This document shows, one piece after another, positions 5,390-62,618 of a stretch of 64,000 nucleotides of DNA (position 1 is its first letter; each line of letters opens with the position of its first letter). The stretch lies in the sequence record AP019559. One strand, given 5' to 3'. The notes beneath the pieces were generated by a model that worked only from the letters and a program-made list of their open reading frames with translations, was not told where the DNA came from and ran no database searches. Origin of the DNA: Escherichia phage SP15. Position numbers and translations under genes: made by a program.

Positions 5390-5683
5390 AAATAACACTC
5401 CTATAGTGTACTTCGCTAACAGAGGATCAACAAAAAGATCTTGTTTATCAACTTACAAATATATTATACCAATATATACAGTAAAAAGCAACTACAATTT
5501 TAAATAAGCCTATGATATTGCATTTAAATAAAAAATTTGCTTGCTTTTAACGTGAGATGTGTGATACTAGATAATCATTTTATATCGCGTGCACGAGTGC
5601 GTGATTATACAATTTTTAATAGAGATTGGCAAATAAAATTTTTTGACTCAGATCATGTTACAGAACTTTATAGTAAAATATTG

Positions 5684-5712
5684 TTGACATCCGCCCTCGA
5701 ATGAGTTATAAT
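5684..5712 (+). promoter_or_regulatory. Sigma70-type promoter upstream of nrdD (TTGACA, 17-nt spacer, TATAAT)
   Basis: Perfect -35/-10 consensus with 17-nt spacer about 30 nt before the nrdD RBS. Confidence 0.6.
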
Positions 5713-7621: not shown

Positions 7622-7660
7622 TCAGCCGGGTTGCTAGTCGACCTGGCTTTTATTTTATTT
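7622..7660 (+). terminator. Probable rho-independent terminator after nrdD
   Basis: Imperfect hairpin AGCCGG...CTGGCT followed by TTTTATTTTATTT. Confidence 0.4.
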
Positions 7661-7687
7661 GCTTTCAGCCAAAAATTTATATATAAT
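7659..7687 (+). promoter_or_regulatory. T5-type early promoter (TTGCTT, 17 nt, TATAAT) with conserved ATAAATTTGAGAGGAG leader
   Basis: Member of a reiterated promoter cassette; see findings. Confidence 0.6.
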
Positions 7688-7715
7688 AGATTTATAAATT
7701 TGAGAGGAGAAAGAT

Positions 7716-8096
7716 ATGGAATTAAAGCCCTATATAGTTGAGTCTACGTGTGGTAGTTTCCATCTGGGCGTGGATGATATTGCTGAAGCTGTCTTTGCTG
7801 CCACAGGTGATTACTCGCATATAGAGGGTGTTGCATACCCTACCATTATTGGCGATTGGGTGGGAACAAATCTAGATGTATCGCCTTATAACCCATATTG
7901 CTTGTTTGATGAAGACAGAGATGAAGTAAAATGTAATCTTGAATTTGTGTATAATAGAGTGTTAAAAGTATACCAACGTAGCCCCAATGGATACGAAGAT
8001 ATTACTTGGAGTATTAAACAGTATCTTAAAGATGTATACTCTAGTTTTTCTGACGAAGACCTAGAAACAGTTGCAGTGGAGTTTAATAATGACTAA
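7716..8096 (+). CDS. Hypothetical acidic protein
   Basis: 126-aa ORF with RBS GAGGAG downstream of promoter; no motif recognised. Confidence 0.5.
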   Translation: MELKPYIVESTCGSFHLGVDDIAEAVFAATGDYSHIEGVAYPTIIGDWVGTNLDVSPYNPYCLFDEDRDEVKCNLEFVYNRVLKVYQRSPNGYEDITWSIKQYLKDVYSSFSDEDLETVAVEFNND

Positions 8097-10958: not shown

Positions 10959-11097
10959 TTTTTATTGGTTGACCTCTATAATCCGGGCTATTAGTGCTCG
11001 GATTATTGCCTAATCTTTCCAGCTAATTGACAGCATGAATAAATTGTCATTGACAAATTGAATAGATTATGTAATAATATGTGTATTGGAGGTAAAG

Positions 11098-11550
11098 ATG
11101 TCGCTCACACAACAAGAACTTTTAGATAATTTCCGATATGAAGATGGAAAATTATTTAGAACCACAGGAAGAAATGCAGGCAAGGAATGTTGTGTTTCAA
11201 CGGGAAATGGGTATTATCGTATTTCTCTAGGTAGTAAAACTATGCTCCGACACAGAGCCATCTTCTTAATGCATCATGGTTATCTCCCTGATTTAGTAGA
11301 TCATGAGAATACTATAAAAGGTGATGATCGTATTGAAAATCTTAGAGAGCAGACAGTATCCGGTAATCTAAGAAATATCAAATATAAGAAAGGAATGCAT
11401 GTTTACCCTTCTGGTAGTAAGAACTGGCAAGTAGTATTTACTATTAACCGTAAACGTATAGTTAAAGGAACATATGACAACTATGAGGTTGCATGTTCTA
11501 TGGCCAAGATGTTTAGAGGTCAATTATACGGTAGGGAATCAATCCAGTAA
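11098..11550 (+). CDS. HNH homing endonuclease (HNH_3 type)
   Basis: Motif LVDHENTIKGDDRIENLRE; start at ATG preceded by GGAGG; free-standing in an intergenic position. Confidence 0.7.
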   Translation: MSLTQQELLDNFRYEDGKLFRTTGRNAGKECCVSTGNGYYRISLGSKTMLRHRAIFLMHHGYLPDLVDHENTIKGDDRIENLREQTVSGNLRNIKYKKGMHVYPSGSKNWQVVFTINRKRIVKGTYDNYEVACSMAKMFRGQLYGRESIQ

Positions 11551-11618
11551 AATTTCATTTGCAAGGGAGTATTATTTTATAGTATAATATTCCCATAAAT
11601 GAGAGATATTAGTAAAAA

Positions 11619-11648
11619 TTGATTTTGCTAATTTTTCTTGTTTACAAT
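11619..11648 (+). promoter_or_regulatory. Candidate sigma70 promoter (TTGATT, 18 nt, TACAAT)
   Basis: Lies upstream of the long GC-rich leader preceding the helicase gene. Confidence 0.35.
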
Positions 11649-12085
11649 CCGCGATACGGAACAGTTAGGCTGCCCCATTAAGGGTTGTTTTAACTGTTAC
11701 GTGTTAGTTTTTAAGCAAATAATTAATAGAATACTTAGCGATCTGCGTCCCGTAGGAACCCTGGTAAGGCCTCGAAGCAACCTAGATAGAGGTGGTTGTG
11801 AAGTGAGACGGGAGGAGTGAAAAACTCCGAGACGTGATTCTGTAAGTTATATTGCATCTAGTATGAGCTAGTATATGAAGCATTAGGTGAGCAAATCTGG
11901 CTTAGCGGCCATCCTCAAGGATTTGTGCGGTATAGCAAAGCAGCAGCGCAGCGTGAAAGTGGAAGTTGCCACCCCACTTCAGTATTTGCGATTAATTTGT
12001 TGAGAAATTGACAGTAACAGTTGTTCTATTCTTTCTGAATAGTCCTAAAGAAAACTTATTTCATTTCCAACACAGGAGTATTGTT

Positions 12086-14875
12086 GTGTTTTCAATCCTA
12101 CAAGGTCATGCAGGATTTCATCGCGATTTAGCCACAGGCAATTGGCGAGAAGTTAAGGCAGAAGATTATCTTTTTGCTAAAAGATTTTCCTCAAAGCATC
12201 CCGAAGGTAAACCAGCTTCAATGCCCTTCAAGTTTGATGTAATTGATGAAGTTGATCCTCAAACCCTAGTAGAAATGCTTCCTCTTATGAGACGTTTAAC
12301 GTCTGACCCTCATATCGTTGCGGTACGAGGTCGATGTCTTGCACCTAAAAATAATGTGCGACGTAAGAAGGGCAACTTTAATGTATCTAATCCAAGTCAT
12401 ATAATCGCAATGGATGTGGATGGTATTGTAGATACAGGAGGTTGTAACAAGTTTGATCTTGTTGGCATGGCGCGTCATATTATTAGGATGTTGAATAGTA
12501 TTAGTGAGGATATGTTTCCTCTTGATGCAGGGTTTATTGCTCATGCATCATCTTCGGCTGGCCTAAAACCAGGTATCCGAATGCACTTAATACTAGAATC
12601 TAATGTTAAAGTTACACAGGGTCAGATCAAGTTCTTATTTACATCTATCAACGAAAGTAGTAGACAAAAGTATGGCTTTGATATTGCCGACTTAGCTTAT
12701 TACTCTTCCGTACAGCTCCACTATTTTGCAGATCCTTTATTTACTGATGGTATAGTTGATCCGTTTAAAGCGGAGGGTGCTTCACGTCTGGTATTTGTTA
12801 AAGGCTCAAAAGTAAATTTACCTAATAATCTAGTTGACTATGAAACAACTAGAGGAGAGTTTAAAGAGGAATTCTACTCTTTACTCGATCAAATTAAAGG
12901 TAAAAAAGCCGCCTCCGATAAAGTAGAGGAAACTATCAGCGAACTAGAAGAAGCTGAGGATGGAGTGTATCTACGTATTATTCCTAAACTCTATCACAGG
13001 GCTTTAGAGGATGGTGTTGATTTTGCATGGCTAGAAAAAGAAATCCGCCCAGCCTTATCAGAGTATATTGCAACTAAAGATAATAGTCGTAATATTCAAG
13101 ATTATTTTAACAACGGTAGAAAACAGGCTCTGAAAGCGTTTGTTAATAATTCTAAACGTGATATACCGGATGTTTTAAAAGGTATTCCACTTAAAAAGCT
13201 AGAAACTAACTCTCTAGAGACTGATAACTTCTTGAAATTAAATACTGTACCACCAGAAGGTTATATGACTTTTGTAAAAGCAAGTCTAGGTACAGGTAAA
13301 ACTACGGCGGTTGTGCGTTGGTTAGATTCAGGAGTTATTAAGGGTAATTTCTTAGCAATTACCAATACTCGAGCACTGGTATCTTCAAATGCTAAGAAAT
13401 TTAGTGCAGGACAATATGATAAGTCTGTAGATATGCTTAATTTTAAGCGTGGCGCTATTGACCGTATGTCCACAACTATACATTCTTTGCATAAGTTCAA
13501 GAGTTTTATTGGTCAAATCGATGCAATCTTTATCGATGAATGTGACGCTGTAATGAATGACCTATTATTCGCCCCGGTTGTTAAACAACGTCGTGAATGT
13601 ATTCAGGTTCTTCGGGATATTCTTGCAACTGCAAAAATCATTATATTATCTGATGGTGATATTAGTGCTGAAACAATTGAAGCATATGGTTCTTTGATTG
13701 AGTTTGATAAACCGGTTGCATTTTATAATCATCACCGTAAGATGCTGTCAAAAGCTCATGCTTATGAGTTCCCTGATGAATCTAGTATTTGGGTTGCACT
13801 TCAGACCTCTCTAGAGATGGGTGAGAAATCTATTCTGGTATCTGATTGTGGGCCGGATGAGCTGAATGAGAAAGGTATGGCACTGCGTCGTAATACGGGT
13901 GCGTTAGTTAAGGAAATCCATTCAAACTCTACCTCAGATGTGGATATTAGACGTATTCTGGATTACACAACTAATGAACTAATTGATCAACAAATTGATT
14001 GTTTATTATGTAGTCCATCCGTAACGAGTGGTGTTGACTTTAACTATTTTGATAACGTATTTGTTATTACTAGAACTAGTAATCAAGCGCCAAACATGCG
14101 TTTCCAAGCAATCAGGCGCGACCGTGGTGCTCAGAATATCTATTATTTTATTGATAAATCCACTAGTGGATTCTCCGCAGGTTCTGAACAATATAATATT
14201 GATGAGGGTTGGCTGGAGTTAGCACAGCAATTATACGCACGTCGCAGGGAGCTGGAATCTAGGAACTATACTAGTACTTTACGTTATTACTTACTTGATC
14301 AGGGTGCAACTATTGATATTTTCAGTGAAAGCTGGGGAACTATTGAAGGTGCTGGTAAAGAGTATACAGAAGAGCGAATCAAAGCTATTCTGCACTCAAC
14401 TCCTGATTATTGTGCTCCACGTCATGCGGATGCGTATGAAGCTAAACTACTTCTTGTTCGCTATTATCATCTGGAGTCTATTAAAGATGTAACCGTTGAG
14501 CATGTTGAACAATATATCAAAGATAAGCCGAATGATCGAGCTGCATTCTTCCATAAGATGCATGAGATGTTCTGGGAAGATATTAAGAAGTGTTCAAATG
14601 TCACTATCAAACCTTTCATAGAAGCTCTGAAAGGTAAGAAGAAAGATTTCTTCCTTAAAACAGGTCAGAGTGCTAACCCAAAATATGCTAGAATGTATCT
14701 TGGTATGATGGGTATTGGTAAAGATATGAACACGGAGAATATCGTAGACTGGTACAGAACCTATTGTAAAATCGAGTGTATGCCAATTCCTTTCAAATTC
14801 ATGACAGAGGAAGAACGTCAGATGCACGAGGAAGCAATGTCAGAGCTAGGTGCTAGAAATGACAGTGAAGAATAA
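12086..14875 (+). CDS. Large P-loop NTPase / SF2-type helicase, putative replication initiation (origin-binding) helicase
   Basis: Walker A SLGTGKTT, Walker B FIDECDAV; start placed at GTG preceded by AGGAG (ORF track extends to 12008). Confidence 0.65.
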   Translation: MFSILQGHAGFHRDLATGNWREVKAEDYLFAKRFSSKHPEGKPASMPFKFDVIDEVDPQTLVEMLPLMRRLTSDPHIVAVRGRCLAPKNNVRRKKGNFNVSNPSHIIAMDVDGIVDTGGCNKFDLVGMARHIIRMLNSISEDMFPLDAGFIAHASSSAGLKPGIRMHLILESNVKVTQGQIKFLFTSINESSRQKYGFDIADLAYYSSVQLHYFADPLFTDGIVDPFKAEGASRLVFVKGSKVNLPNNLVDYETTRGEFKEEFYSLLDQIKGKKAASDKVEETISELEEAEDGVYLRIIPKLYHRALEDGVDFAWLEKEIRPALSEYIATKDNSRNIQDYFNNGRKQALKAFVNNSKRDIPDVLKGIPLKKLETNSLETDNFLKLNTVPPEGYMTFVKASLGTGKTTAVVRWLDSGVIKGNFLAITNTRALVSSNAKKFSAGQYDKSVDMLNFKRGAIDRMSTTIHSLHKFKSFIGQIDAIFIDECDAVMNDLLFAPVVKQRRECIQVLRDILATAKIIILSDGDISAETIEAYGSLIEFDKPVAFYNHHRKMLSKAHAYEFPDESSIWVALQTSLEMGEKSILVSDCGPDELNEKGMALRRNTGALVKEIHSNSTSDVDIRRILDYTTNELIDQQIDCLLCSPSVTSGVDFNYFDNVFVITRTSNQAPNMRFQAIRRDRGAQNIYYFIDKSTSGFSAGSEQYNIDEGWLELAQQLYARRRELESRNYTSTLRYYLLDQGATIDIFSESWGTIEGAGKEYTEERIKAILHSTPDYCAPRHADAYEAKLLLVRYYHLESIKDVTVEHVEQYIKDKPNDRAAFFHKMHEMFWEDIKKCSNVTIKPFIEALKGKKKDFFLKTGQSANPKYARMYLGMMGIGKDMNTENIVDWYRTYCKIECMPIPFKFMTEEERQMHEEAMSELGARNDSEE

Positions 14876-15092
14876 AAAATGGGAAACAAGGAAGTTTCCA
14901 GTAAAAGAACGCAAAGTTCCTGTTTATGATACTTCGGAGAAGCTATGTAGGGTGGTACCGCATAGATTAGCTGGTATCCCTAACATATCCGAGTGGTTAC
15001 TTAAACAACGGAGGACTAACGTATCTCTTCGCGTAGGGTTTGAGTTAGATAAAGTATATGCTGAACTTTCTTCTTTGCTCAAAGAATCATAA
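14859..15092 (+). CDS. Hypothetical small basic protein
   Basis: ORF overlapping helicase stop; weak RBS. Confidence 0.25.
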   Translation: MTVKNKKWETRKFPVKERKVPVYDTSEKLCRVVPHRLAGIPNISEWLLKQRRTNVSLRVGFELDKVYAELSSLLKES

Positions 15093-15101
15093 AAAATTTA
15101 T

Positions 15102-15130
15102 TTGCTTTCAGGAAAAATTTTCTGTATAAT
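15102..15130 (+). promoter_or_regulatory. Strong early promoter, near-identical to the T5 PN25 promoter as I recall it
   Basis: TCATAAAAAATTTATTTGCTTTCAGGAAAAATTTTCTGTATAATAGATTCATAAATTTGAGAGAGGAG; -35 TTGCTT, 17 nt, -10 TATAAT. Confidence 0.8.
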
Positions 15131-15161
15131 AGATTCATAAATTTGAGAGAGGAGTTTAAAT

Positions 15162-15866
15162 ATGGCTGGTTCTCGCAGAAAGAAACATATCCATGAAATC
15201 CCGGATGAAGTCTTTAAAAAAGTTATAGAGCACCTGGAGAACGGTGGTACTAAGAAAGCAGCATGTGAAATGCTCGGCGTATCATCCAATCCAACTATGG
15301 AAAGGATGATAGAAGAGTGGCAAGACCGGCAGATCCAAGTTGCCGAGATGAAGAAAAAGAAACGCGGTACACTCATTGAAGGCATTGAGTTGGCCAACGT
15401 TATTGAACAGTATCTATCTGGTGATTCCTTTGAGGAGATTGCCGATCGTAATTATCGTTCTGTAGCAATGGTTAAATCTGTTCTGGAACGCTATGGTGCT
15501 CTGCTTCGTTTGAACGATATTGTAGATCCATTGAACCCACCAATTATTCCTGATGATGCTGTAGCAGAAGAATTTGAGGTAGGTGAGCTTGTTTGGGTTC
15601 CTGGATACCAGTGTATCGGTGAAATCAAAAAAGCAATGGATAACCCTGTCGGTTGTTACCGTGTATGGCTTCTATCAGAAGGCAAACAACAGAACGTTCA
15701 TTATATGAATTACGAGCTGGCTTCTGTTAAACATCTGGAAAAGTTAGGGGTTGATGTAAAGTCTCTGGGGTACAAATGGTCCCGGGAAGAAGTTATCACA
15801 CTGATTAACGAAGCTGTTAAGGCTGCCCTGAAACTTGATAAAGAAAAAGGTAAACGTCGTGAGTAG
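15162..15866 (+). CDS. Putative DNA-binding protein with two HTH-like segments
   Basis: 234 aa; N-terminal GGTKKAACEMLGVS and SFEEIADRNYRSVAMVKSVLERYG; immediately downstream of PN25-like promoter. Confidence 0.55.
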   Translation: MAGSRRKKHIHEIPDEVFKKVIEHLENGGTKKAACEMLGVSSNPTMERMIEEWQDRQIQVAEMKKKKRGTLIEGIELANVIEQYLSGDSFEEIADRNYRSVAMVKSVLERYGALLRLNDIVDPLNPPIIPDDAVAEEFEVGELVWVPGYQCIGEIKKAMDNPVGCYRVWLLSEGKQQNVHYMNYELASVKHLEKLGVDVKSLGYKWSREEVITLINEAVKAALKLDKEKGKRRE

Positions 15867-16110
15867 ACTAACTGATTTACTTAAAGATGGGGAAGTAAAA
15901 ACGCTATATCGTAGAAGCTGGGATAACGATAATAACGGCTTAGTGTTACTAACTTTAGATGCTGACTCGGATGTAGCTACTCAGCATACCTGGGTAGCCG
16001 GTAACTATCCATATAGCGAGGTTGTTTCATTAACAGTATGCGAAGCTATTGCGGACGATTGGGAGGTTGCCAGCATTGATGATATGCTCGCTGTTGGCCT
16101 GGTGGAGTAA
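15835..16110 (+). CDS. Hypothetical protein
   Basis: 91-aa ORF overlapping the previous gene end; start ambiguous (TTG 15835 or GTG 15859). Confidence 0.35.
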   Translation: MIKKKVNVVSRLTDLLKDGEVKTLYRRSWDNDNNGLVLLTLDADSDVATQHTWVAGNYPYSEVVSLTVCEAIADDWEVASIDDMLAVGLVE

Positions 16111-16127
16111 CTACTTAAAAATTTCAG

Positions 16128-16156
16128 TTGCTTAATCCTATAATTCTTGATATAAT
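16128..16156 (+). promoter_or_regulatory. T5-type early promoter (TTGCTT, 17 nt, TATAAT)
   Basis: Consensus hexamers with 17-nt spacer upstream of 16214 ORF. Confidence 0.55.
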
Positions 16157-16213: not shown

Positions 16214-16624
16214 ATGACTACTCCAACTCAGTGGACTGATGAACTGTTTGAAAAAATGTCTTCCGAATATGTTGCTCGTATGGAGCAATTCCCAGAGGAT
16301 GAACGTCCGGGTGTTAGCATGGAAATTGTTAGCGAAATTGCCCAGGAAAATGGTGTAACTCCGAACGGTTTTCGTATGAAGCTGACTAAAGCAGGTTTGT
16401 ATATCAAGAAAGCTGCTGGTTCTACTTCGAAATCTAGCGCATCTACTGGAGAAAAAGCTTCCGGTGGTTCTCGTACCTCCAAAGCTCAAGCCCATGCCGA
16501 CCTTCGTTCAGCTTTCTCTGATGCTGGCTTAGCACCAGATTTTCTGGATGATGCAATTATCGACAAACTGACCGGTAAAGCGGCTGCTCATCTGGCAGAA
16601 GCAATCCGAGCTATCACTAAGTAA
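16214..16624 (+). CDS. Hypothetical protein with Ser/Thr/Gly-rich linker
   Basis: 136 aa, RBS AAGGAAAT; host-optimal codon usage. Confidence 0.5.
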   Translation: MTTPTQWTDELFEKMSSEYVARMEQFPEDERPGVSMEIVSEIAQENGVTPNGFRMKLTKAGLYIKKAAGSTSKSSASTGEKASGGSRTSKAQAHADLRSAFSDAGLAPDFLDDAIIDKLTGKAAAHLAEAIRAITK

Positions 16625-16968: not shown

Positions 16969-16990
16969 AGCCCCTATATGGGGCTTTTTG
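16969..16990 (+). terminator. Rho-independent terminator
   Basis: Hairpin AGCCCC-TATAT-GGGGCT followed by TTTTT. Confidence 0.7.
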
Positions 16991-17008: not shown

Positions 17009-17317
17009 ATGAGCGAACAGGTAAATCAAAACTATGAAGGACACGTTGATGACCAGTCCATCATACTTTGGGAGAAGGAGGGGGAACAAGTAAGATTAAC
17101 AGTATCTGAATTTCGTGGGAATCTATACATGGGTATTCGTTACTGGCTTCTTGATATTAATGATGAATGGTTTCCAACGAAATCTGGCTTCTCTTTTCCT
17201 TACACCCTAGAAACAACATCACAGCTTTTCTATGCGTTTACACAGATTCTTAGCGAATCTGAGGTTTTACATGAAGTACAGAAACGAGCTGAAGAACTCA
17301 AAGCCAAGAATGCCTAG
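17009..17317 (+). CDS. Hypothetical protein
   Basis: 102-aa ORF followed by terminator. Confidence 0.5.
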   Translation: MSEQVNQNYEGHVDDQSIILWEKEGEQVRLTVSEFRGNLYMGIRYWLLDINDEWFPTKSGFSFPYTLETTSQLFYAFTQILSESEVLHEVQKRAEELKAKNA

Positions 17318-17333
17318 TTCTTGGCTTTTTCTT
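17303..17333 (+). terminator. Rho-independent terminator
   Basis: Hairpin AGCCAAGAA...TTCTTGGCT followed by TTTTTCTTT. Confidence 0.65.
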
Positions 17334-17344: not shown

Positions 17345-17373
17345 TTGCTTTCAACTCAGTTTTGTTATATAAT
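17345..17373 (+). promoter_or_regulatory. T5-type early promoter (TTGCTT, 17 nt, TATAAT)
   Basis: Consensus hexamers; downstream ATAAATTAATGAGAGGA leader. Confidence 0.55.
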
Positions 17374-17403
17374 ATTTATATAAATTAATGAGAGGATTGC
17401 AAA

Positions 17404-17676
17404 GTGAAAAAGATAAATATAAGTACACTTAAACCTTTTCCATATATCGGACAGCCTCTCATCCTCATGTGGGAGGAAAAGATTAATGGGGAAAAGTATA
17501 CTAAAACTAGAATTGGGTATAAACTGATTTCACTTTATTACGAAAAAGAAGTATTAATAGCTGAAATATACTCTCCATTATCGGATAGGCTAGTAAAAAC
17601 TACATATTTGCATCTTTGCAAAAATTATACGTGGCACGGATCTACCAGACAACCCACGTACTATGAGGCAGAATAA
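17404..17676 (+). CDS. Hypothetical protein
   Basis: 90-aa ORF (GTG start) directly upstream of ligase gene. Confidence 0.4.
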   Translation: MKKINISTLKPFPYIGQPLILMWEEKINGEKYTKTRIGYKLISLYYEKEVLIAEIYSPLSDRLVKTTYLHLCKNYTWHGSTRQPTYYEAE

Positions 17677-18698: not shown

Positions 18699-18727
18699 TT
18701 GACATTTTCGCCGCTTAGGTATATACT
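18699..18727 (+). promoter_or_regulatory. Sigma70 promoter (TTGACA, 17 nt, TATACT) within the ligase spacer
   Basis: Consensus hexamers between the two ligase ORFs. Confidence 0.5.
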
Positions 18728-18791: not shown

Positions 18792-18820
18792 TTGCTAAAT
18801 GCTTAAATACTTGCTATAAT
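18792..18820 (+). promoter_or_regulatory. T5-type early promoter (TTGCTA, 17 nt, TATAAT)
   Basis: Directly upstream of second ligase ORF; ATAAATTGATAAGGAAG leader. Confidence 0.55.
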
Positions 18821-20407: not shown

Positions 20408-20440
20408 AAGGGGAGGGGGCTATGCTCCTTCCCCTTTTTG
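20408..20440 (+). terminator. Rho-independent terminator
   Basis: GC-rich hairpin AAGGGGAGGGGG...CCTTCCCCTT followed by TTTTT. Confidence 0.6.
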
Positions 20441-20472: not shown

Positions 20473-21945
20473 ATGACCTTGTTTAACGTGCAAGCTGTAG
20501 TGTTGAAGATGCTTCTAGCTTCCGAACAGAAGCAAATAGCATTGGAAACATTCTCAAAACTGCATAAAGATCATTTTAATGACGCTTTCTCCTCAATTTA
20601 CCAAGCCGTCCAGAATTATTATAAAAAATATAACACAATGCCGTCCATTGACGCACTGATGCTTGAGGCTAATAGGAACGCCCGCCTTTCTCAAGCTCTA
20701 GTCGTTTTAGCTAACACTCAAATTCCAGAAGTTAGCATGGAACAGGCACTTGAAGTCCTAGAAGCCGAGTATACACAGGATTTATTCCTGAAGCTTCTAG
20801 AAACAGACGTGCTTCAAGATTTAACAATGCTGGATCAGGGAGAAATTCTTAACCGAGTTGCCTCCCTTCACTTAAAATTAGAAGAGAAAGTAACGAATAC
20901 TGGAAAAGTATTCAACGCAGATAACATGCGTATTTTCCAGAGAGAAGAAGATACCAAACTGAACTTAATCGCTCTTGGTATCTGTAATGAGTTCGACGCT
21001 CAAATTGGTTTAGCTCGCACAGAAACGTTACTGCTTGGTGGTTGGCGTGGTACTGGTAAATCCATTATCTGTTCAAACATACAGGTTCAGCAATATTTGA
21101 ATGGGGATATTGCTCCATACTTCTCAATTGAGATGAAAGAACATGAAGTATTTAGACGTAATCTAGCCATGTTAGCTGGTGTATCCGCACTAGCAATGCG
21201 TAATAATACTCTAGAAGGCGCAGCTCTGTTGAGATTAGCCAGAACTAGAGCTAGGATGTTTAATGGTGGTGAAGAGCTTTTCGATAACTTCGTTAAACAG
21301 TACACAATGGCTAAGATGAGTGATTTCTACGATATGGAAAGTAAGCTAATAGAAGGGTATGAACTACATACTCCTATGATTATTGTTTATGATCCTGAGC
21401 TGTCTATTACAACAGTTGACGTAGAATTAAATAAATTAGTTGCTAGATATGGGGATAAAGTTACAGTAGCTTTACTGGACTATATTAACCAAACCCGACT
21501 TCCAGATTCTAAAACCATTGATATGTATGACTGGAAAGAACAGATGGTTGTTAGCTCGTCTTTCAAATCTATCTGCCAGAAACATAACGTGGCTGGCGTA
21601 GCTCCTTACCAGATCGATCAAGATGGTAGAACACGTATGTCAAAAGGGATTCTTGATTCCGCAGACATGGCTGCTAATCTTAATGCTGCAAAAGCTGATA
21701 ATGGTCAAGGTGCTATTATGTTTGACTTCGTTAAGACTCGTTCTTCTGATAGCGTGAAGTTTATGCCTAAAATGAACTGGGAAACCCTGCGGATGGATAA
21801 TACTACCAACCTAGCAATGGAAGATATATCTCAAATGGAAGCTGAGTTCGTTATCCCTATTGAGAAGGATAAGCCGGCTCAATCTAAACGTGCTAAGAAA
21901 GACAAAGCTGAAAATTCAACAGGTGAACAGGCCAGCGATATATGA
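20473..21945 (+). CDS. DnaB-like replicative DNA helicase
   Basis: Walker A GGWRGTGKSIICSN; start uncertain (ORF open from 20422). Confidence 0.7.
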   Translation: MTLFNVQAVVLKMLLASEQKQIALETFSKLHKDHFNDAFSSIYQAVQNYYKKYNTMPSIDALMLEANRNARLSQALVVLANTQIPEVSMEQALEVLEAEYTQDLFLKLLETDVLQDLTMLDQGEILNRVASLHLKLEEKVTNTGKVFNADNMRIFQREEDTKLNLIALGICNEFDAQIGLARTETLLLGGWRGTGKSIICSNIQVQQYLNGDIAPYFSIEMKEHEVFRRNLAMLAGVSALAMRNNTLEGAALLRLARTRARMFNGGEELFDNFVKQYTMAKMSDFYDMESKLIEGYELHTPMIIVYDPELSITTVDVELNKLVARYGDKVTVALLDYINQTRLPDSKTIDMYDWKEQMVVSSSFKSICQKHNVAGVAPYQIDQDGRTRMSKGILDSADMAANLNAAKADNGQGAIMFDFVKTRSSDSVKFMPKMNWETLRMDNTTNLAMEDISQMEAEFVIPIEKDKPAQSKRAKKDKAENSTGEQASDI

Positions 21946-22475
21946 TAACACAGGAAAGGCTAAAAGAGTTATTTGATTACTCCCCAGAAACTGGGGAGTT
22001 TACTAGAAAAGTATCTAGAGGTAATCAGAAAGCTGGTAGTATAATAACCAGAAAAGACTCTAACGGTTATATAATTATTGGTATAGATGGCAAGGGTTAC
22101 AAAGCCCATCGGATGGCTTTTCTATTTATGGAAAATACATTGCCGGAAAAAGTAGACCATGTAAACAGAATACCTTTTGATAATAGGTGGTGTAATCTAA
22201 GAGACGCCACAGCTCAGGAAAATAGTAGAAATAAAACCGCATGTAGTAAGTCTGGATATTTGGGAGTTGCTTGGGATATCGAAAAACAAAGATGGAGAGT
22301 TCAAGTAAGAGACTCTAATAGCACTCTTAAAAATGGTGGCAGATTTAAGTATGAAGAGCTAGAGCTAGCTGTAAATTCAGCAAATATATTAAGGACTAAG
22401 TTACATGGAGAACGTGCTGTTATAGAAATTTTTGATACATCCAATTATCCTTCACTGGAGGAGTTAAATTCATGA
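21942..22475 (+). CDS. HNH homing endonuclease with AP2-like DNA-binding domain
   Basis: VDHVNRIPFDNRWCNLRDAT and SGYLGVAWD; ATGA overlaps with both flanking genes; paralog of 63412-63948. Confidence 0.75.
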   Translation: MITQERLKELFDYSPETGEFTRKVSRGNQKAGSIITRKDSNGYIIIGIDGKGYKAHRMAFLFMENTLPEKVDHVNRIPFDNRWCNLRDATAQENSRNKTACSKSGYLGVAWDIEKQRWRVQVRDSNSTLKNGGRFKYEELELAVNSANILRTKLHGERAVIEIFDTSNYPSLEELNS

Positions 22476-23362
22476 GTCGAATAACAGAATTACTTGATCT
22501 TAAGGGAATTGAGTATAAAGATACTGGTGGAGATATTTTAATCTGTTGTCTCAATCCAGATCATGACGATAAACACCCAAGTTTGCGTATTGACCCTGAA
22601 ACAGGTATTATGCACTGCTTGAGTTGTGGCTTCGGTAAAGGTATACCGAGCATTTACCATTATTTTAATGAGACTCAGTACCGACAGTCCCCAAGGCTAT
22701 CACAAGTACGTAAAAAGATTTCAGAGATTAGGAATGGATCAACGAATCTTGCAATTCCTGAATCTGCTTACCTTTTTGAAGGTGATTTCCGAGGTATAAG
22801 TTCTAAGACCTTGAAGAAATATTTTGCTTTCCAACACCAAGCAGACTGGGAAGGCAGAATCGTATTCCCAATCACAGATGCTGTTGGACGCAATATCCTA
22901 TTTTTGGGTCGTTCTATAAACAGTTCTGCCCCTCCTAAATACTTAGTAAAACCAAAACAAGTTTCACCGCCAATTTTTCCTGTACGATATAATACTCCAG
23001 TTCTTATTCTAGTTGAAGGCATCTTTGATATGCTGAACCTAGAGGATAATGGTATAGACTACGCTTCTTGCTGCTTTGGTACACATCAGTTTACTTCGGA
23101 TAACATTGCAGATAAGTTCAGTCCTTATATTATTGCCGGTGTAAAAGTTGTTGTTATCTTACTAGATAATGATGCTTCTGGTAATAAAGCTGCACAAGCA
23201 TTGGCCAAGCTAATTCGTACAAAAACGCGTTTAACACCTGTAGTTGCTAACTTTCTTCTGCCTGAAGGTAAAGACCCGGGTGACTTAAATAAAGAAGAGA
23301 TTGATATGTTAGCAAAACGTATTGAAATTTTAGTTGCTGAATCGCTTAAAGATTTGGTATAA
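22472..23362 (+). CDS. DNA primase (zinc-binding domain plus TOPRIM)
   Basis: CCLNPDHDDKHPSLRIDPETGIMHCLSCG zinc motif; TOPRIM LVEGIFDML and LLDNDASG. Confidence 0.8.
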   Translation: MSRITELLDLKGIEYKDTGGDILICCLNPDHDDKHPSLRIDPETGIMHCLSCGFGKGIPSIYHYFNETQYRQSPRLSQVRKKISEIRNGSTNLAIPESAYLFEGDFRGISSKTLKKYFAFQHQADWEGRIVFPITDAVGRNILFLGRSINSSAPPKYLVKPKQVSPPIFPVRYNTPVLILVEGIFDMLNLEDNGIDYASCCFGTHQFTSDNIADKFSPYIIAGVKVVVILLDNDASGNKAAQALAKLIRTKTRLTPVVANFLLPEGKDPGDLNKEEIDMLAKRIEILVAESLKDLV

Positions 23363-23388
23363 TAGTCCTAAATAACTGAGGAGCTACT

Positions 23389-23718
23389 ATGGAATATGTA
23401 TATATTTACGAGGATGTTCCAGTATACGATAGTATAACACACGAAGAGGTTAAACTAGAGCTGTTTACAGTACTAGAGTCCCTTAATAAACGGAAGGATT
23501 TTCATTTATTTGGTGATCCTAAATTACCTGCATCTTATATTTTCTTTAAAGTAAAAGATACAGGTCAAGAGGTGTATCTAACTTATGATTGGGCTGTTGT
23601 AGAAAATACTGAGCAATCTATGAAAGTGTTAGGTGCTTTTCTGCGTATAGTTGAAGAATTTCAGGCACTAGAAAAGCAGCGCAATGAAATGCGTAAATTA
23701 CTACATACCTATAAATAG
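23389..23718 (+). CDS. Hypothetical protein
   Basis: 109-aa ORF with RBS GAGGAG. Confidence 0.5.
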   Translation: MEYVYIYEDVPVYDSITHEEVKLELFTVLESLNKRKDFHLFGDPKLPASYIFFKVKDTGQEVYLTYDWAVVENTEQSMKVLGAFLRIVEEFQALEKQRNEMRKLLHTYK

Positions 23719-23721
23719 TAT

Positions 23722-23750
23722 TTGCTATTATCCCAATATTTTGATATAAT
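23722..23750 (+). promoter_or_regulatory. T5-type early promoter (TTGCTA, 17 nt, TATAAT)
   Basis: Consensus hexamers upstream of DNA polymerase gene. Confidence 0.55.
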
Positions 23751-23811
23751 ATATTGGTAAGTTAGAGAAGAAACACTGAAGTTATACTTACTTACCAAGA
23801 GGAGATTAAAT

Positions 23812-26869: not shown

Positions 26870-28218
26870 AGGTTGTTATATCTAATAAAGCCTATTTCAA
26901 GCCCGATGATGAACTTTGGGATTATTGTAGTAAGCAAACCACTTATCACATAGAGACAATGACTAGTAAATACCCTATTATGTATAAGAATAGTGGTGTT
27001 GTTGCCAAAGAGATTAAGTGGATTCCTATTACGCGTCTGGACTTACTAGATGCTAAAGGAGTAAAATACGAATTAGTCGATAAACGCACATTAGCTCCGG
27101 TAGATATACCAAAACCTAAGTTCAAACTGCGTGAAGAAGATCAGCTTCCAATATATGAAGAATGCGATGATACCTGTATTATTAATGGTAAGCCTGGATT
27201 TGGTAAGACTATTCTAGCCCTTGCACTTGCGTATAAATTTGGCCAGAAAACTTTGGTAATCTGTACGAATACATCCATTCGTGAAATGTGGGCGGCAGAA
27301 GTTCGTAAATGGTTTGGGTTTGAACCAGGCATCATAGGTTCTGGGAAATACAATATTGATCCACCAATTGTAGTCAGTAATATTCAAACAGTGAATAAAC
27401 ATGCGAATAATCTTTCTAAAGTATTTGGTACTGTTATAGTTGATGAAGTTCACCATTGTGTGGCTACAACTTTCACTAACTTCCTAGAAATATCATGTGC
27501 TCGCTATAAAATTGGACTATCCGGCACACTAAAACGAAAAGATGGTTTACAAGTTATGTTCAAAGATTTCTTTGGATATAAGATATTTAGCCCGCCGGTT
27601 AATAATACTGTTGCACCTACAATCCATAGGTACTCCGTGCCTGTTGAGCTATCAGGAAACCAAAACGTGCCGTGGGCATTACGTGCTAACGATGTGTATA
27701 ATCATCCTGAATATCGAGAGACTATTATAAACCTAGCACATTTATATGTGAATATGGGACATAAAGTACTCATTGTAAGTGATAGAACAGAGTTAATCCA
27801 AACAGTACTAGAAGCACTATCTCAGCGAGGAGTCACAACCTATGAGATTATTGGCGCAACCCACTTAGATAACCGATTAAAAATTCAGGAAGATATAGCA
27901 AAAGGTGGCCCTTGTGTACTTGCAGCAGCTCAAAGTATCTTCTCTGAAGGTATTTCCCTTAATGAGCTATCTTGTTTAATAATGGGAAGCCTCATTAATA
28001 ATGAATCTCTCATTGAACAGCTTGCAGGCCGTGTTCAACGTATTGTCGATGGTAAACTCGACCCTATTGTTGTAGATCTAATTATGAAAGGTGGCACTGG
28101 ACTAAGGCAGGCTTCTGGACGGATGGCAGTATATCGTAACAATGGGTGGAAAACTATTACTATGACTCCTGAGAAAGCAGTTCAATTAGCTAAAATTGCA
28201 TTTGGCAACAGCTCATAA
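26866..28218 (+). CDS. SF2 DEAD/DEAH-box ATP-dependent helicase (T5 D10-like)
   Basis: Walker A GKPGFGKT, Walker B VDEVHHC, helicase C-terminal motifs. Confidence 0.8.
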   Translation: MKVVISNKAYFKPDDELWDYCSKQTTYHIETMTSKYPIMYKNSGVVAKEIKWIPITRLDLLDAKGVKYELVDKRTLAPVDIPKPKFKLREEDQLPIYEECDDTCIINGKPGFGKTILALALAYKFGQKTLVICTNTSIREMWAAEVRKWFGFEPGIIGSGKYNIDPPIVVSNIQTVNKHANNLSKVFGTVIVDEVHHCVATTFTNFLEISCARYKIGLSGTLKRKDGLQVMFKDFFGYKIFSPPVNNTVAPTIHRYSVPVELSGNQNVPWALRANDVYNHPEYRETIINLAHLYVNMGHKVLIVSDRTELIQTVLEALSQRGVTTYEIIGATHLDNRLKIQEDIAKGGPCVLAAAQSIFSEGISLNELSCLIMGSLINNESLIEQLAGRVQRIVDGKLDPIVVDLIMKGGTGLRQASGRMAVYRNNGWKTITMTPEKAVQLAKIAFGNSS

Positions 28219-28230
28219 ATGATGTATAAT
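28202..28230 (+). promoter_or_regulatory. Early promoter (TTGGCA, 17 nt, TATAAT), first of a tandem pair
   Basis: Followed by ACATAAATTTGAGAGAGAAAG leader. Confidence 0.5.
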
Positions 28231-28301
28231 ATATACATAAATTTGAGAGAGAAAGTTTCGGATTGATAAGAAAGTCCGAAGCAGAAAAATAAAAATTTTA
28301 G

Positions 28302-28331
28302 TTGCTAAATTCTCTCGAAATCTAGTATAAT
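28302..28331 (+). promoter_or_regulatory. Early promoter (TTGCTA, 18 nt, TATAAT), second of a tandem pair
   Basis: Followed by ACATAAATTCGAGGAGAAAAC leader. Confidence 0.5.
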
Positions 28332-29489: not shown

Positions 29490-29496
29490 TAAATAG

Positions 29497-29520
29497 AGGG
29501 GCTTCGGCCCCTTTCTTTTT
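29497..29520 (+). terminator. Rho-independent terminator
   Basis: Hairpin AGGGGC-TTCG-GCCCCT followed by TTCTTTTT. Confidence 0.75.
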
Positions 29521-34126: not shown

Positions 34127-34148
34127 TCTACGTATCAAATAAATAATA

Positions 34149-34180
34149 AACCCCAGTGGATTTTGTCCACTGGGGTTTTC
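34149..34180. terminator. Bidirectional rho-independent terminator between convergent early and late gene blocks
   Basis: Hairpin CCCCAGTGGA-TTTTG-TCCACTGGGG flanked by A-run and T-run. Confidence 0.75.
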
Positions 34181-49406: not shown

Positions 49407-50301
49407 TTTTAATTTCTCCAAAGAAATCTATTCTCACTGGGTCTGAAGAAGCAGTAGGTATAATATCCCACTCAACTCTATACACATCTGAGAAATCTAG
49501 GCGTTTTGTAATACGTGCTGAAGGAAAATCTATAGAAATATTATTATTTCTTATATTTAAAGGTACATCTGTCTCCGGTTCGATATTGTAAACCATATCT
49601 CCTGCAAAACGTTTTAAGTAATATAGAGAAATGGTTGCCGAAGCATTCATTTCATTTACATAAGCTCTTTTATTATTATAAATTTTATTTATATCAAAAA
49701 CACTCTTATCCTCTCTCCAGGAGCACTGCTGTTGGAAAGATAAAGAGGCAGAAATAAGACCGGGTAAGATGCTGCCATTAGTAGAAGCTATTACTGGGCT
49801 GTAAGACATTACTTCACCCTGTATAATAGAAGCTGCTTCTCTATAGGTAGATACTTCTGAGAATTTCCCAGACTCAATACCAACATTAAGAATTGGTATG
49901 TTCTTATCTAAAGAAAAATCTACCGTAGATACATAACAGTTTTCAAAATATACACAGTTATTATCTTTATTTACTATATAGATATTGAACATAATAGGTT
50001 CAATATTACTACTATATAGTGGGAGTAAGAAAGTATTACCTTTTCTATCAAAACCTAACCATTCAAAGAAGTTAGCCTCTGTAAGAGTATTACTGAAATT
50101 TATTGCTAGAGAGATAGAAGAGGGGGTTTGAGCATTTATAATAGAGTCTGCATAGTTAGTTCTACGATGAACAGTCCTACGAAGAGTCTTGAATTCCTCG
50201 TAGGAAGTCTGTATATCATAGTTTGATAGGGCATCAAAATGAAATGCCCTACCATCATACTCAACTATAACTTTTGACTCTCGCATTAGAGAGTAGTACA
50301 T
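49399..50301 (-). CDS. Minor tail protein (T5 p140-like)
   Basis: 300 aa directly downstream of tail tube gene. Confidence 0.5.
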   Translation of the reverse strand: MYYSLMRESKVIVEYDGRAFHFDALSNYDIQTSYEEFKTLRRTVHRRTNYADSIINAQTPSSISLAINFSNTLTEANFFEWLGFDRKGNTFLLPLYSSNIEPIMFNIYIVNKDNNCVYFENCYVSTVDFSLDKNIPILNVGIESGKFSEVSTYREAASIIQGEVMSYSPVIASTNGSILPGLISASLSFQQQCSWREDKSVFDINKIYNNKRAYVNEMNASATISLYYLKRFAGDMVYNIEPETDVPLNIRNNNISIDFPSARITKRLDFSDVYRVEWDIIPTASSDPVRIDFFGEIKND

Positions 50302-53566: not shown

Positions 53567-54943
53567 TTAAGCGGTAGCGTAAGCACCGGATACAACACCA
53601 TTACTAAAGTAACGTTGCAGGTTAACACGCTGAGTAACGTAGTATGCATCACGCTGTTTACCAGCTTGGCGCTCACGTTCAACAGTAACAGCACGCTGGC
53701 GTGGCATCACGAAGTTATCTTTATAAACAATAACTGCGAACTCTTTCTCAGCTGCTTTAGCTGGGAAGTACTCAGAAACTACAACCGGCAGACCGTAAAT
53801 ACGACCAACCTGACCTTGCAGTTTAACAGCATCGTTGCCAACCTGTGCAACATCCTGCCATTCTTCATCTTCCAGCAGATCGTAGTAAGCATCCATAGAT
53901 ACGATCAGTACCAGTTTGCTCAATTTCAGACCATGACGGCCAAGTTTACGACGCAGTTTAGAAATAGTTTTAGCAGTTACCAAAACAGTACCATCAGCTT
54001 TAGCTTCAGTAGTAACTTTAGCACCATCTTCACTAGCAAGAGTCAACAGACCTTTCGGCTGACCAGTACCATTACCAGTCATAAACGCTTCTTCGATAGA
54101 AACGGCATGTGCTTCGATCAGACGCTTACGCAGCAGAGGCAGCAGGGAGAAGATTGCATCTTCTTCAGTTTCATCAGTGATGAAGGACTTAGCAGCCAGC
54201 TTGTAAGTTTTGAAACTAATCTCAGTCAGAGTACCTTTAACTTCGTCACCAACAGTTTCGTCAGTACCGAATTTGGAAGCATCTACCCAAGTAGCTTTTC
54301 CAGCTTCTGGTTCAACCAGCATAGTAAGAATTTTGCTGGACATTGGCAGTTCATCGAACAGTGCGCCAACTACTAATTCTTTCTGCAGGTCACGGATAAT
54401 ACGAGTGGAGAAGATAGTTTCATATGCTTCGCTAGACATAGAAACGGAAGAAGAACCATTAACAGCCTTAACGTGGGCTTTACCATGTTCAGTTTCAAAT
54501 ACATCCTTCTCCATCATATAAGACAGAAGAACCAGTTTTTCAACTTCATCTTCAAAAGCTTCCTGAGTACCATACAGTGCTTTAGCTACACTATCACCAA
54601 CGAAGGAACGGCCTTCACGAGCTGCTAGCAGAGATTTAATTTCATCCTGAAGACCAACAATAGTTTCCTGTTGTTTTTCTACAGTTTGTGCAAATAGTTC
54701 TGCGCTCTTCTTAGATTTCTCATCCAGGGACTTAACCAGATCCAGAGCCTCTTCCAGACGCTTACGGTCTTCACCAACAGCTTTAGAAACCAGGTCATTC
54801 ATACGAGCCAGTTCTTTTTCTTCCTGCTCTTTACGCATACGTTCAGCTTCCTGAGCTTTCTGAGCAGCGGTCAGACCTTCCAGAGATTTAGCCAGATCAC
54901 CCAGACCAAGTTCTTCTTTCAGCTTATTAATATCAATAGTCAT
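53567..54943 (-). CDS. Major capsid protein precursor (pb8-like, HK97 fold with N-terminal scaffold domain)
   Basis: 458 aa; N-terminal coiled-coil delta domain; host-optimal codon usage. Confidence 0.85.
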   Translation of the reverse strand: MTIDINKLKEELGLGDLAKSLEGLTAAQKAQEAERMRKEQEEKELARMNDLVSKAVGEDRKRLEEALDLVKSLDEKSKKSAELFAQTVEKQQETIVGLQDEIKSLLAAREGRSFVGDSVAKALYGTQEAFEDEVEKLVLLSYMMEKDVFETEHGKAHVKAVNGSSSVSMSSEAYETIFSTRIIRDLQKELVVGALFDELPMSSKILTMLVEPEAGKATWVDASKFGTDETVGDEVKGTLTEISFKTYKLAAKSFITDETEEDAIFSLLPLLRKRLIEAHAVSIEEAFMTGNGTGQPKGLLTLASEDGAKVTTEAKADGTVLVTAKTISKLRRKLGRHGLKLSKLVLIVSMDAYYDLLEDEEWQDVAQVGNDAVKLQGQVGRIYGLPVVVSEYFPAKAAEKEFAVIVYKDNFVMPRQRAVTVERERQAGKQRDAYYVTQRVNLQRYFSNGVVSGAYATA

Positions 54944-54960: not shown

Positions 54961-55593
54961 TTATTCTTTAACGTAGCCTAAAGCTATCGCAAGTTTTTCT
55001 AGTTCAGAAAGATTACGTTCTTGAGCTGGGACAGCTTTAGAACTTATTGCAGTAAAAGATTTACGCCATTCAGTATAATCATAACCATTCATGCTCTTAG
55101 CGAGATTGAACGTTGAGTCCTGATTACAAGGTACAGAAACTACCGAAACTTCGTATAGTTCTAAATCTTTAATAATAAATATATCAGTAGCTTCATCCCA
55201 CTCTGCATCTAGGCAGCGGAATCCGATACTAAAAGTTTTCAGTACACCGTTTTTAATTAGTGAAAAGATAGCCGGGTCAGAACTTTCATAGATCTCGCAT
55301 TCTATTTCGAGACCCATTTCAGTAGGGTTAAGATCAATACACTTACCGATTGGACGACGATGATCGTGTCCGAAAAGAATAATCGGGTTTTTCATATAGT
55401 TAGCAAGTGCATTAGATGTTTTCCACGCAGAAGCAGGAATTACATCACCAGCGCGATCTTTACTAATTGTATTAGCGAATCCACGGATTTTTACAACACC
55501 TTCTTTGGATTCGCTATCAATAGATTTAATATAAGCATCTAAATGAACGGGTGCTGATTTTAACTTGTTATAGTCAATAGCAGCTTGTGTCAT
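54961..55593 (-). CDS. Prohead protease (pb11-like)
   Basis: 210 aa between decoration and capsid genes. Confidence 0.65.
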   Translation of the reverse strand: MTQAAIDYNKLKSAPVHLDAYIKSIDSESKEGVVKIRGFANTISKDRAGDVIPASAWKTSNALANYMKNPIILFGHDHRRPIGKCIDLNPTEMGLEIECEIYESSDPAIFSLIKNGVLKTFSIGFRCLDAEWDEATDIFIIKDLELYEVSVVSVPCNQDSTFNLAKSMNGYDYTEWRKSFTAISSKAVPAQERNLSELEKLAIALGYVKE

Positions 55594-55596: not shown

Positions 55597-56088
55597 TTAG
55601 CCTCCAACACCAGGGTTAACTGTCACAGTACACGCAGTAGAATCCTTACTTACTCGCTTACTATCTGTTACAGTTACTTTATAAGAGCCGGCATCCTCAG
55701 CTGCTGCTGCAGGCTTAGTATATGTAGCTCCTGAAGCTTCCGGAATAGGGGAACCATCTTTAGTCCATGCATAAGTGTATGGACCAGTACCACCAGTTGC
55801 AGTAACAGAAAGAGTTAACGTTGCTCCAGTATCAACTGACATGCTAGCAGTTAAATCTTTAGAAAGAGTTAACGGTGGGGCCGGTGGAGCAGGAGGAACT
55901 GCTTTAACATAAGCCTCTACAAATTTCTTCCATACTTTACGGTTAGTATGCGCAGATGAAAGCCCTAGTTCTCTACGCAGAAAAGCATAGCTAGGAACAT
56001 ATTTATGCGCAGCAACCGTAGCAAAGAAGATATGAGATTCTGGCAGTTTTTCACCAAAAATGGTCTTTAGACCATTATAATCAATCAT
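55597..56088 (-). CDS. Capsid decoration protein (pb10-like) with C-terminal Ig-like domain
   Basis: 163 aa; Pro-rich linker PPAPPAPP then TLTLSVTATGGTGPYTYAW Ig-like segment. Confidence 0.7.
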   Translation of the reverse strand: MIDYNGLKTIFGEKLPESHIFFATVAAHKYVPSYAFLRRELGLSSAHTNRKVWKKFVEAYVKAVPPAPPAPPLTLSKDLTASMSVDTGATLTLSVTATGGTGPYTYAWTKDGSPIPEASGATYTKPAAAAEDAGSYKVTVTDSKRVSKDSTACTVTVNPGVGG

Positions 56089-62324: not shown

Positions 62325-62353
62325 TTGCTTATACTGCCATAATTCTGTATAAT
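62325..62353 (+). promoter_or_regulatory. T5-type early promoter (TTGCTT, 17 nt, TATAAT) driving llp
   Basis: Consensus hexamers 30 nt upstream of llp RBS AGAGGAG. Confidence 0.6.
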
Positions 62354-62384
62354 AGTATTATAAATTAAATAGAGGAGAATGTAA

Positions 62385-62618
62385 ATGAAAAAATTATTTT
62401 TAGCTCTGGCAGTGGTACTTCTTTCGGCTTGCTCTACTTTTGGGCCTAAAGATATTAAATGTGAGGCCTACTATGTACAAGATCATGTGAAATATAAGGC
62501 TAATGTTTTTGATAGAAAAGGGGATATGTTCCTGGTGGCACCAATCATGGCCTATGGATCTTTCTGGGCTCCAGTAAGCTACTTTACCGAGGGGAATACA
62601 TGTGAAGGAGTTTTCTAA
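62385..62618 (+). CDS. llp: Lytic conversion lipoprotein precursor (Llp-like)
   Basis: 77 aa; signal peptide with lipobox LLSAC; divergent from pb5-like gene. Confidence 0.75.
   Translation: MKKLFLALAVVLLSACSTFGPKDIKCEAYYVQDHVKYKANVFDRKGDMFLVAPIMAYGSFWAPVSYFTEGNTCEGVF

Follow-up and report, generated by a model that had tools for sequence, protein, structure and literature searches.

The window analysed here (the whole stretch of 64,000 nucleotides) contains, at positions 15078-15161, a sequence that is almost certainly orthologous to PN25 of phage T5, a host sigma-70 promoter of early genes. The feature as such is already known and is already annotated in the T5 reference records. Its sequence identity, synteny, conservation and the enrichment of the promoter family to which it belongs were established in the present analysis, and its strength, sigma-70 dependence, early timing and start site are taken from the literature on T5. 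A preliminary description of the window had proposed near-identity to T5 PN25, and this was verified against two T5 records and against printed PN25 sequences, from all of which the window differs by one base.

The 68-nt string quoted in that description has a single exact occurrence in the window (15087-15154, plus strand, 0 mismatches) and had 0 matches in 100 shuffles. The interval originally given for it, 15088-15164, thus starts one base off, the true start being 15087, and its end, 15164, falls on the G of the start codon (ATG) of open reading frame (ORF) 15162-15866. With a 111-nt query, a regulatory feature labelled 'promoter P-N 25' was found at the homologous place in both T5 records (54987-55061 in AY692264 and 63043-63117 in NC_005859), and 74 of its 75 bases are identical in the window. 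According to the alignment to the T5 records, the sole substitution in the promoter (window AAAAATTTT versus T5 AAAATTTTT) is a change from T in T5 to A in the window at -20 (window position 15117), inside the A/T tract of the spacer. After the ribosome-binding site the window has one extra T relative to NC_005859; AY692264 agrees with the window here. The same single-base difference separates the window from PN25 as printed in a primer (PMC4447248, which names it 'the strong coliphage promoter PN25') and in a template (bioRxiv 10.1101/042432); an engineered cassette printed in PMC9303389 shares its -35 box, spacer and -10 box with PN25 and likewise differs from the window by that base. The -20 A allele also occurs in natural T5-like phages (loci L006, L008, L025 and L026 of our comparison). 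The change leaves the spacer tract composed of A and T only, and the window allele presumably behaves like that of T5. Otherwise, the two copies share the TTGCTT hexamer, the 17-bp spacer, TATAAT, the discriminator AGATTC, the ATAAATTTGAGAGAGGAG leader and the start codon context. They also share their genomic place between the homologues of T5.110 and T5.111: in the window, the promoter follows the genes for the origin-binding protein and the T5.110 homologue and precedes the T5.111 homologue.

The surrounding DNA agrees with this assignment. BLAST of NC_005859 (46.0-121.7 kb) against the window showed that window positions 1-63.4 kb are colinear with T5 47.7-111.4 kb, interrupted by a few indels and spanning both the early region (replication and nucleotide metabolism) and the late (virion) region. 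When 4 kb surrounding the PN25 site served as the query, 450 phage records matched, nearly all of them from T5-like phages of Escherichia or Salmonella, at an identity of at most 96%; the first 25 kb gave the same outcome, with MM-1, BB1 and JLBYU40 as the closest records (about 95-96% identity). All best matches of the window are Tequintavirus phages, and the window is accordingly a Tequintavirus (T5-like) genome, as the preliminary description had proposed. We considered whether the window could be BF23 itself, which is 99% identical to it around the pol promoter, and rejected this identification: BF23 lacks both the 278-bp ORF that the window has before ligA and the HNH gene that the window carries at 21945-22472. 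The T5 gene hegI, located upstream of T5.110, is absent in the window. Rfam and tRNA scans of the whole 64-kb window yielded no matches.

The anatomy of the PN25 copy (all elements on the plus strand) can be laid out as follows. An A/T-rich UP-type element occupies 15078-15100 (about -59 to -37) and includes an A-tract, AAAAAA, at 15091-15096 (-46 to -41), which overlaps the end of the preceding ORF 14850-15092 (stop codon at 15090-15092). The -35 hexamer TTGCTT (15102-15107) is separated by a 17-nt spacer with an A/T tract (TCAGGAAAAATTTTCTG, 15108-15124) from the -10 hexamer TATAAT (15125-15130), which is invariant in 25 distinct relatives. Compared with the sigma-70 consensus, the -35 box matches TTGACA at three of six positions and the -10 box matches TATAAT at all six, with a 17-bp spacer. 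Then come the 6-nt discriminator AGATTC (15131-15136), with G at -5 (15132), and a transcribed leader of 25 nt (15137-15161) beginning with ATAAATTTGAGAGAGGAG. The leader consists of an ATAAATT box (15137-15143), a Shine-Dalgarno run (GAGAGAGGAG, 15145-15154) and a 7-nt gap, followed by the ATG at 15162-15164. We place the +1 position at the A at 15137, since ApU is the initiating dinucleotide on T5 N25 (bioRxiv 10.1101/042432) and A-T is found at 15137-15138. This arrangement agrees with the account of N25 given by Hsu and Han 2025 (PMC12464699), who describe a -35 box TTGctt, a 17-bp spacer containing an A/T-rich UP-like element, a -10 box TATAAT, a canonical UP element centred at -49 and a 6-bp discriminator with G-5. 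No terminator hairpin is present at PN25 itself. Folding of the PN25, PN26 and pol leaders was no better than that of shuffled sequences (z = -1.2, +0.5 and +0.6, respectively), and a hairpin in the leader of the P31A homologue was the only one standing out.

The first gene of the PN25 unit (15162-15866, plus strand) encodes a 234-aa homologue of T5.111, for which we found a weak helix-turn-helix match below the Pfam cut-off. The Pfam scan of eight small neighbouring proteins found only a PC4-like domain in the product of 17009-17317 in addition to this sub-cut-off match. The labels attached to T5.111 itself vary between records, being 'D3 protein' in AY692264 and 'D2 helicase' in RefSeq.

With the published properties of N25 in mind, the PN25 copy may be regarded as an ordinary, very strong promoter read by the host RNA polymerase with sigma-70. 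The A/T-rich upstream element and the TTGCTT -35 box would recruit RNA polymerase, and the 17-bp A/T-rich spacer together with the perfect TATAAT would make binding fast and the open complex long-lived. In the comparison of strong promoters in PMC12464699, N25 has the highest on-rate; its rate-limiting step is escape, and escape is controlled by the initial transcribed sequence. Transcription would begin at the A at 15137, and the 25-nt leader would supply the ribosome-binding site for the 234-aa gene at 15162, so that promoter, start site and ribosome-binding site may come as one unit.

Searching viral contigs with the PN25-driven protein as a query returned 46 loci. The stretch from the -10 box to the ribosome-binding site, including the leader, is invariant in about 30 T5-like loci, and variation in PN25 is limited to the -35/spacer part, which occurs as two alleles (TTGCTTTCAGG... 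and TTGCATAGTKC...), and to sequence lying far upstream. At L032 and L034, where protein identity falls to 68-74%, the -35 box, the -10 box and ATAAATT at the expected start are kept, with diverged spacers; no such cassette was found at loci where the protein identity is 41% or less. Across the group, conservation of the cassette is highest from -10 to +8.

The PN25 copy is one of 12 members of a family of cassettes in the window, each lying a short distance before a gene and oriented with it. Their consensus comprises a proximal AAAATT tract, TTGCT(T/A), a spacer of 17-18 nt, TATAAT followed by A, and an A/T-rich discriminator. The AAAATT-type tract recurs just 5' of the -35 box in all cassettes, TGn often precedes the -10 box, and A at -6 is invariant, the discriminators taking various A/T-rich forms (AGATTC, ATATTT, ATTTAT, ATATAC and others). 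ATAAATT is present at +1 in seven members and absent from the other five, including those of PN26, pol and both minus-strand cassettes. Eleven of the 12 lie between 1.8 and 28.3 kb, in the block of replication and nucleotide-metabolism genes, and the twelfth precedes llp.

Besides PN25, eight cassettes had been listed in the preliminary description; all were found at the positions given there, each falling on an annotated T5 promoter. On the plus strand, the first of them (7659-7718; -35 box at 7659-7664, -10 box at 7682-7687, ATG at 7716) corresponds to the unnamed T5 promoter 55708-55782 before T5.100; it has the leader ATAAATTTGAGAGGAG and a terminator hairpin upstream at 7624-7648. The PN26 homologue (16128-16156; TTGCTT, 17 nt, TGA-TATAAT, no ATAAATT box) drives ORF 16214-16624. 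The ligA promoter cassette (17345-17373; T5 65284-65358) has a terminator upstream at 17300-17328, and the PK28a homologue (18792-18820; TTGCTA, 17 nt, TGC-TATAAT) drives ligB. The remaining four are the pol promoter cassette (23722-23750), the P31A homologue (28202-28230; TTGGCA, 17 nt, TATAAT, ATAAATTTGAGAGAG), the P31B homologue (28302-28331; TTGCTA, 18 nt, TATAAT, ATAAATTCGAGGAG) and the llp promoter cassette (62325-62353; T5 110349-110423). The pattern initially ascribed to them (TTGCTT or TTGCTA followed by 17 nt) fits the listed sites except P31A, with its TTGGCA, and P31B, with its 18-nt spacer. Likewise, the supposedly conserved leader holds in so far as the ATAAATT box occurs in seven of the nine listed sites; the exceptions are PN26 (16128) and pol (23722).

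As a map of early transcription units the initial list was partly complete, missing three cassettes as well as the promoters PK28b and nrdD. Two of the additional cassettes are on the minus strand: 1894-1866 (TTGCTA, 17 nt, TGC-TATAAT; T5 50061-50135), which drives nrdB-frd-thy and has a minus-strand terminator hairpin (1933-1912) directly upstream, and 5491-5463 (TTGCTT, 17 nt, TGG-TATAAT; T5 53638-53712), which drives phoH and nrdA. The third, on the plus strand at 23334-23363 (TTGCTG, 18 nt, TATAAT), lies in the 3' end of the primase gene and drives ORF 23389-23718; we refer to it as pri-3'. Over the aligned 51-75 nt, the window cassettes are 95-100% identical to their T5 counterparts and occupy the same place in the same orientation. 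The two genomes differ at the pol promoter, where a pair of cassettes separated by an extra 109-aa ORF in the window stands in place of the one hybrid promoter of T5 (the -10 box and downstream half of the window pol cassette correspond to T5 71025-71061). The window also has an extra 90-aa ORF after the ligA promoter and lacks an equivalent of the T5 cassette 58999-59073, which precedes the gene for the origin-binding protein.

How far these cassettes stand out from the AT-rich background depends on the pattern used. A generic TTGACA/TATAAT scan revealed no enrichment in the AT-rich window (44 matches versus 58 expected; 59 versus 60), and PN25 is itself not listed by such a scan because TTGCTT matches TTGACA at only three of six positions. 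The specific pattern TTGCT-N18/19-TATAAT, by comparison, has 11 matches versus 0.31 expected, no shuffle having reached 11, and TATAAT-N5-7-ATAAATT has seven versus 0.06 expected. We also scored the members by a leave-one-out procedure with a position weight matrix spanning -48 to +8 and built in the 17-nt register with eleven members. Ten of these scored 30-50 bits, and the maximum in thirty random 64-kb sequences was 16.3 bits. The pri-3' copy scored 9 bits, a low value explained by the misfit of its 18-nt spacer to the 17-nt register; it is counted as a member chiefly for its hexamer pattern and because it makes up the left half of the pol promoter of T5. The signal hence resides in the specific cassette and not in generic promoter-likeness. 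Matches to the matrix occur at the same syntenic places in T5, BF23, MM-1, FFH1, slur09 and SmurfNell.

These results bear directly on the idea that the cassettes are functionless promoter look-alikes arisen by chance. AT-rich phage DNA does yield many look-alikes, and the window is no richer than shuffled sequences in generic sigma-70 matches, yet the specific cassette is 35-fold to more than 100-fold above shuffles, ten of the eleven leave-one-out scores far exceed the random maximum, every cassette is sense-oriented just upstream of a gene and has syntenic equivalents in the six other genomes, and the T5 copy is an experimentally studied promoter; we therefore give chance virtually no credence. 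Hardly any more credible is an origin of the PN25 sequence as contamination or as an engineered insert from a laboratory expression construct. PN25 is indeed used in engineered strains and templates, commercial vectors use a PN25-derived 'T5 promoter', and laboratory constructs of this kind (PN25 with lac operators, e.g. PN25/O4) derive from PN25. The window copy differs from them in having the natural spacer and leader and no operators: neither operator insertions (lac operator) nor vector sequence adjoin the promoter, the site lies within 64 kb of colinear T5-like genome with natural genes on both flanks, and the -20 A allele is shared with other natural T5-like phage genomes.

A different question is whether the box extending from the discriminator to +7 (A at -6, ATAAATT at +1) serves mainly as the site at which a phage regulator switches off the early genes, rather than as a determinant of promoter strength. 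This box is specific to early cassettes, being absent from the late promoters PG25 and PJ5, and it persists in relatives with diverged spacers; moreover, gpT5.026 weakens RNA polymerase contacts at the discriminator and lowers early transcripts (Klimuk et al. 2020). PN26, pol and the two minus-strand cassettes nevertheless lack ATAAATT though they are in the early region, Ppol transcripts being early, and the control of N25 escape by the initial transcribed sequence (PMC12464699) is enough to explain the conservation. We regard a regulator target as the main role of the box as unlikely, and nothing observed here requires it. Recognition of the cassettes as host sigma-70 promoters of early genes is the reading that we retain.

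The promoters annotated in T5 and present in the window also include four that do not fit the matrix: PK28b (18699-18727) and the nrdD promoter (5684-5712), both non-cassette promoters of the early region, and the late promoters PG25 (44753-44725, minus strand) and PJ5 (51923-51895, minus strand). Klimuk et al. 2020 reported that early and late T5 promoters differ mainly just 3' of the -10 box, in the discriminator, that early promoters have an ATATT-type discriminator, and that Ppol transcripts are early and those of PJ5 and PG25 late. The misfit of PG25 and PJ5 to the cassette matrix agrees with this early/late difference; an exact ATATT discriminator occurs in only two of the 12 cassettes, at 5468 (minus strand) and 23745. 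Rommens et al. 1983, cited by Klimuk et al. 2020, have the expression 'T5P25 early promoter' in their title.

Terminator-like hairpins were found at 7624-7648, 16969-16985, 17300-17328, 20408-20436 and 29495-29514, and a bidirectional one at 34148-34178. Together with the cassettes, they would split the early region into short units. Rightward, these would run from the 7659 cassette through T5.100-T5.107, from PN25 through the T5.111 and T5.112 homologues, from PN26 through the T5.113-T5.115 homologues, from the ligA promoter through ORF 17404 and ligA, from PK28b and PK28a through ligB, D5, D6, the HNH gene and pri, from the pri-3' promoter to ORF 23389, from Ppol through pol and D10, and from P31A and P31B through the SSB gene to dut. 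Two leftward units would start at 5491 (phoH-nrdA) and 1894 (nrdB-frd-thy). The eleven further copies may thus drive genes for nucleotide metabolism, ligase, replication, polymerase and SSB/recombination functions, as well as llp.

It is tempting to ask whether the reiterated cassettes have a further role, as recombination substrates whose inter-copy exchange inserts, deletes or swaps small genes, in the manner of the PeSL (promoter-early stem-loop) cassettes of T4-type phages (Arbiol et al. 2010, PMC2839356). We advance this only as a tentative idea, and one that, were it correct, would perhaps add to the promoter explanation and not replace the promoter role. The main case for it is a 376-bp segment (23364-23740; ORF 23389-23718 plus a -35 box and spacer) between two cassette copies, which is present in 49 of 534 records, including BF23, MM-1 and slur09. 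T5, FFH1 and SmurfNell have instead a hybrid whose part before the -10 box matches the left copy and whose part from the -10 box on matches the right one, the junction lying inside the -10 box of the two copies, within TTTG(G/A)TATAATA at 23364/23740. If exchange does occur, this segment could conceivably represent one such cassette-to-cassette event. Ends of five further variable segments lie no more than 50 nt from a cassette (1859/1864, 7718, 15010-15092, 15926-16112 and 17394), and three cassettes have a terminator hairpin just upstream, as in PeSL.

Several observations speak against such a role. Promoters and whole-gene indels are both restricted to gene boundaries, so that some proximity is expected; about half of the events are away from cassettes, including those of the HNH genes hegI and hegJ, and HNH homing endonuclease genes, which insert by a mechanism of their own, account for several of the mobile segments. 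The copy-to-copy signature is seen in one event only, and its junction is identical in all genomes without the segment, which may reflect a single old event. The combination of promoter and stem-loop that characterizes PeSL is likewise restricted, a hairpin being directly upstream in only three of the 12 cassettes (at 7624-7648, 17300-17328 and, on the minus strand, 1933-1912). Both kinds of cassettes are reiterated strong early promoters of the sigma-70 type that border small variable genes, some of the T5-like ones have PeSL-like adjacent terminator hairpins and one T5-like indel junction lies inside two cassette copies; they nevertheless belong to different phage families and differ in sequence, which leaves a weakly supported resemblance in behaviour only. 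Our literature search concerning recombination at promoters in T5-like phages found nothing relevant in the literature searched. On balance, exchange between cassettes appears to us possible but rather doubtful, and their role as early promoters is the one on which the following remarks build.

The PN25 copy fixes the window as part of a T5-like phage, corresponding to T5 47.7-111.4 kb, and the checked map of 12 early promoter cassettes can anchor the annotation of transcription units. As a discovery this carries little weight, the link of the cassettes to gene gain and loss being the only lead with some novelty. It would be worth a further look whether the cassettes mark, or perhaps cause, the gains and losses of genes by which T5-like phages differ from one another.

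Upstream of the pol gene lies a 376-bp variable segment (23364-23740) that is bounded on both sides by a copy of the repeated PN25-type early promoter cassette, one at the 3' end of the primase gene (23334-23363) and the other being the pol cassette itself (23722-23750), with the junction falling within TTTG(G/A)TATAATA. The segment is found in BF23, MM-1 and slur09 and is missing in T5, FFH1 and SmurfNell; 49 of the 534 matching records have it. Inside it is a 109-aa ORF (23389-23718) without a Pfam match. Another cassette, that of ligA, is adjoined by a 278-bp insertion (17394-17672) relative to T5, BF23, FFH1 and slur09, the left end of which is situated directly 3' of the Shine-Dalgarno sequence in the cassette. 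The insertion encodes a 90-aa ORF (17404-17676, GTG start), for which no Pfam match was obtained and whose stop codon directly adjoins the ligA ATG. This ORF is likewise carried by MM-1, whereas SmurfNell has a different segment, 198 bp long, at the corresponding place.

The genomes compared also differ in their content of HNH homing-endonuclease genes, the sites concerned in the window being 1859-1864, 10977-12013, 14814-14855 and 21942-22475. T5 has hegH and hegI, both of which are absent from the window, while a hegJ-like ORF of the HNH group (21942-22475) has a counterpart in T5 but not in BF23, FFH1 or SmurfNell. The region 10977-12013 is unlike that of T5, BF23, FFH1 and slur09, all four of which have a cassette promoter at that site, and is similar to MM-1, in which an HNH endonuclease is annotated at the corresponding position.

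In a scan of the whole 64 kb for RNA genes, no tRNA gene was detected, nor did any Rfam family reach the gathering threshold. A hairpin, GUUUCGGAUU...AGUCCGAAGC (28255-28282), is predicted at the start of the transcript from P31A, a homologue of an annotated T5 promoter, with a stability of -14.2 kcal/mol (z = -4.7) that none of 200 shuffled sequences equalled. It sits between P31A and P31B, promoters not separated by any ORF. In the leader of pol, directly 5' of the ribosome-binding site, there is an inverted repeat with perfectly matching 9-nt arms, TTGGTAAGT...ACTTACCAA (23752-23798); its left arm lies partly upstream of the predicted transcription start, and the leader folded from +1 is not more stable than its shuffles (z = +0.6). 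Downstream of the late promoter PG25, the leader ATTAAAGAGGAGAAATTAACTATG (44718-44695, minus strand) exactly matches primer or vector sequences of 13 papers, and the same sequence serves as the ribosome-binding site in widely used expression vectors with a T5 promoter. The 'synthetic' site of these vectors is therefore apparently the leader that PG25 has in nature.

Within nrdA, a weak site resembling the cassette (TTGCCT, 17 nt, TAAAAT; 4338-4310, minus strand) scores 14.8 bits against the cassette-derived weight matrix, near the maximum for random sequences. It is kept in BF23, MM-1, FFH1, slur09 and SmurfNell, T5 falling below the 14-bit threshold, and could be an internal promoter or a chance match.

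Finally, two promoters that are both annotated in T5 converge and overlap at 62325-62385, with only 3 nt separating their -10 boxes: that of llp (plus strand, -10 box at 62348-62353) and that of oad (TTTACA, 17 nt, TATAAT; 62385-62357, minus strand), which encodes the receptor-binding tail protein. RNA polymerase bound at one should exclude RNA polymerase from the other and, if so, this mutual exclusion could couple an early gene with a late one.
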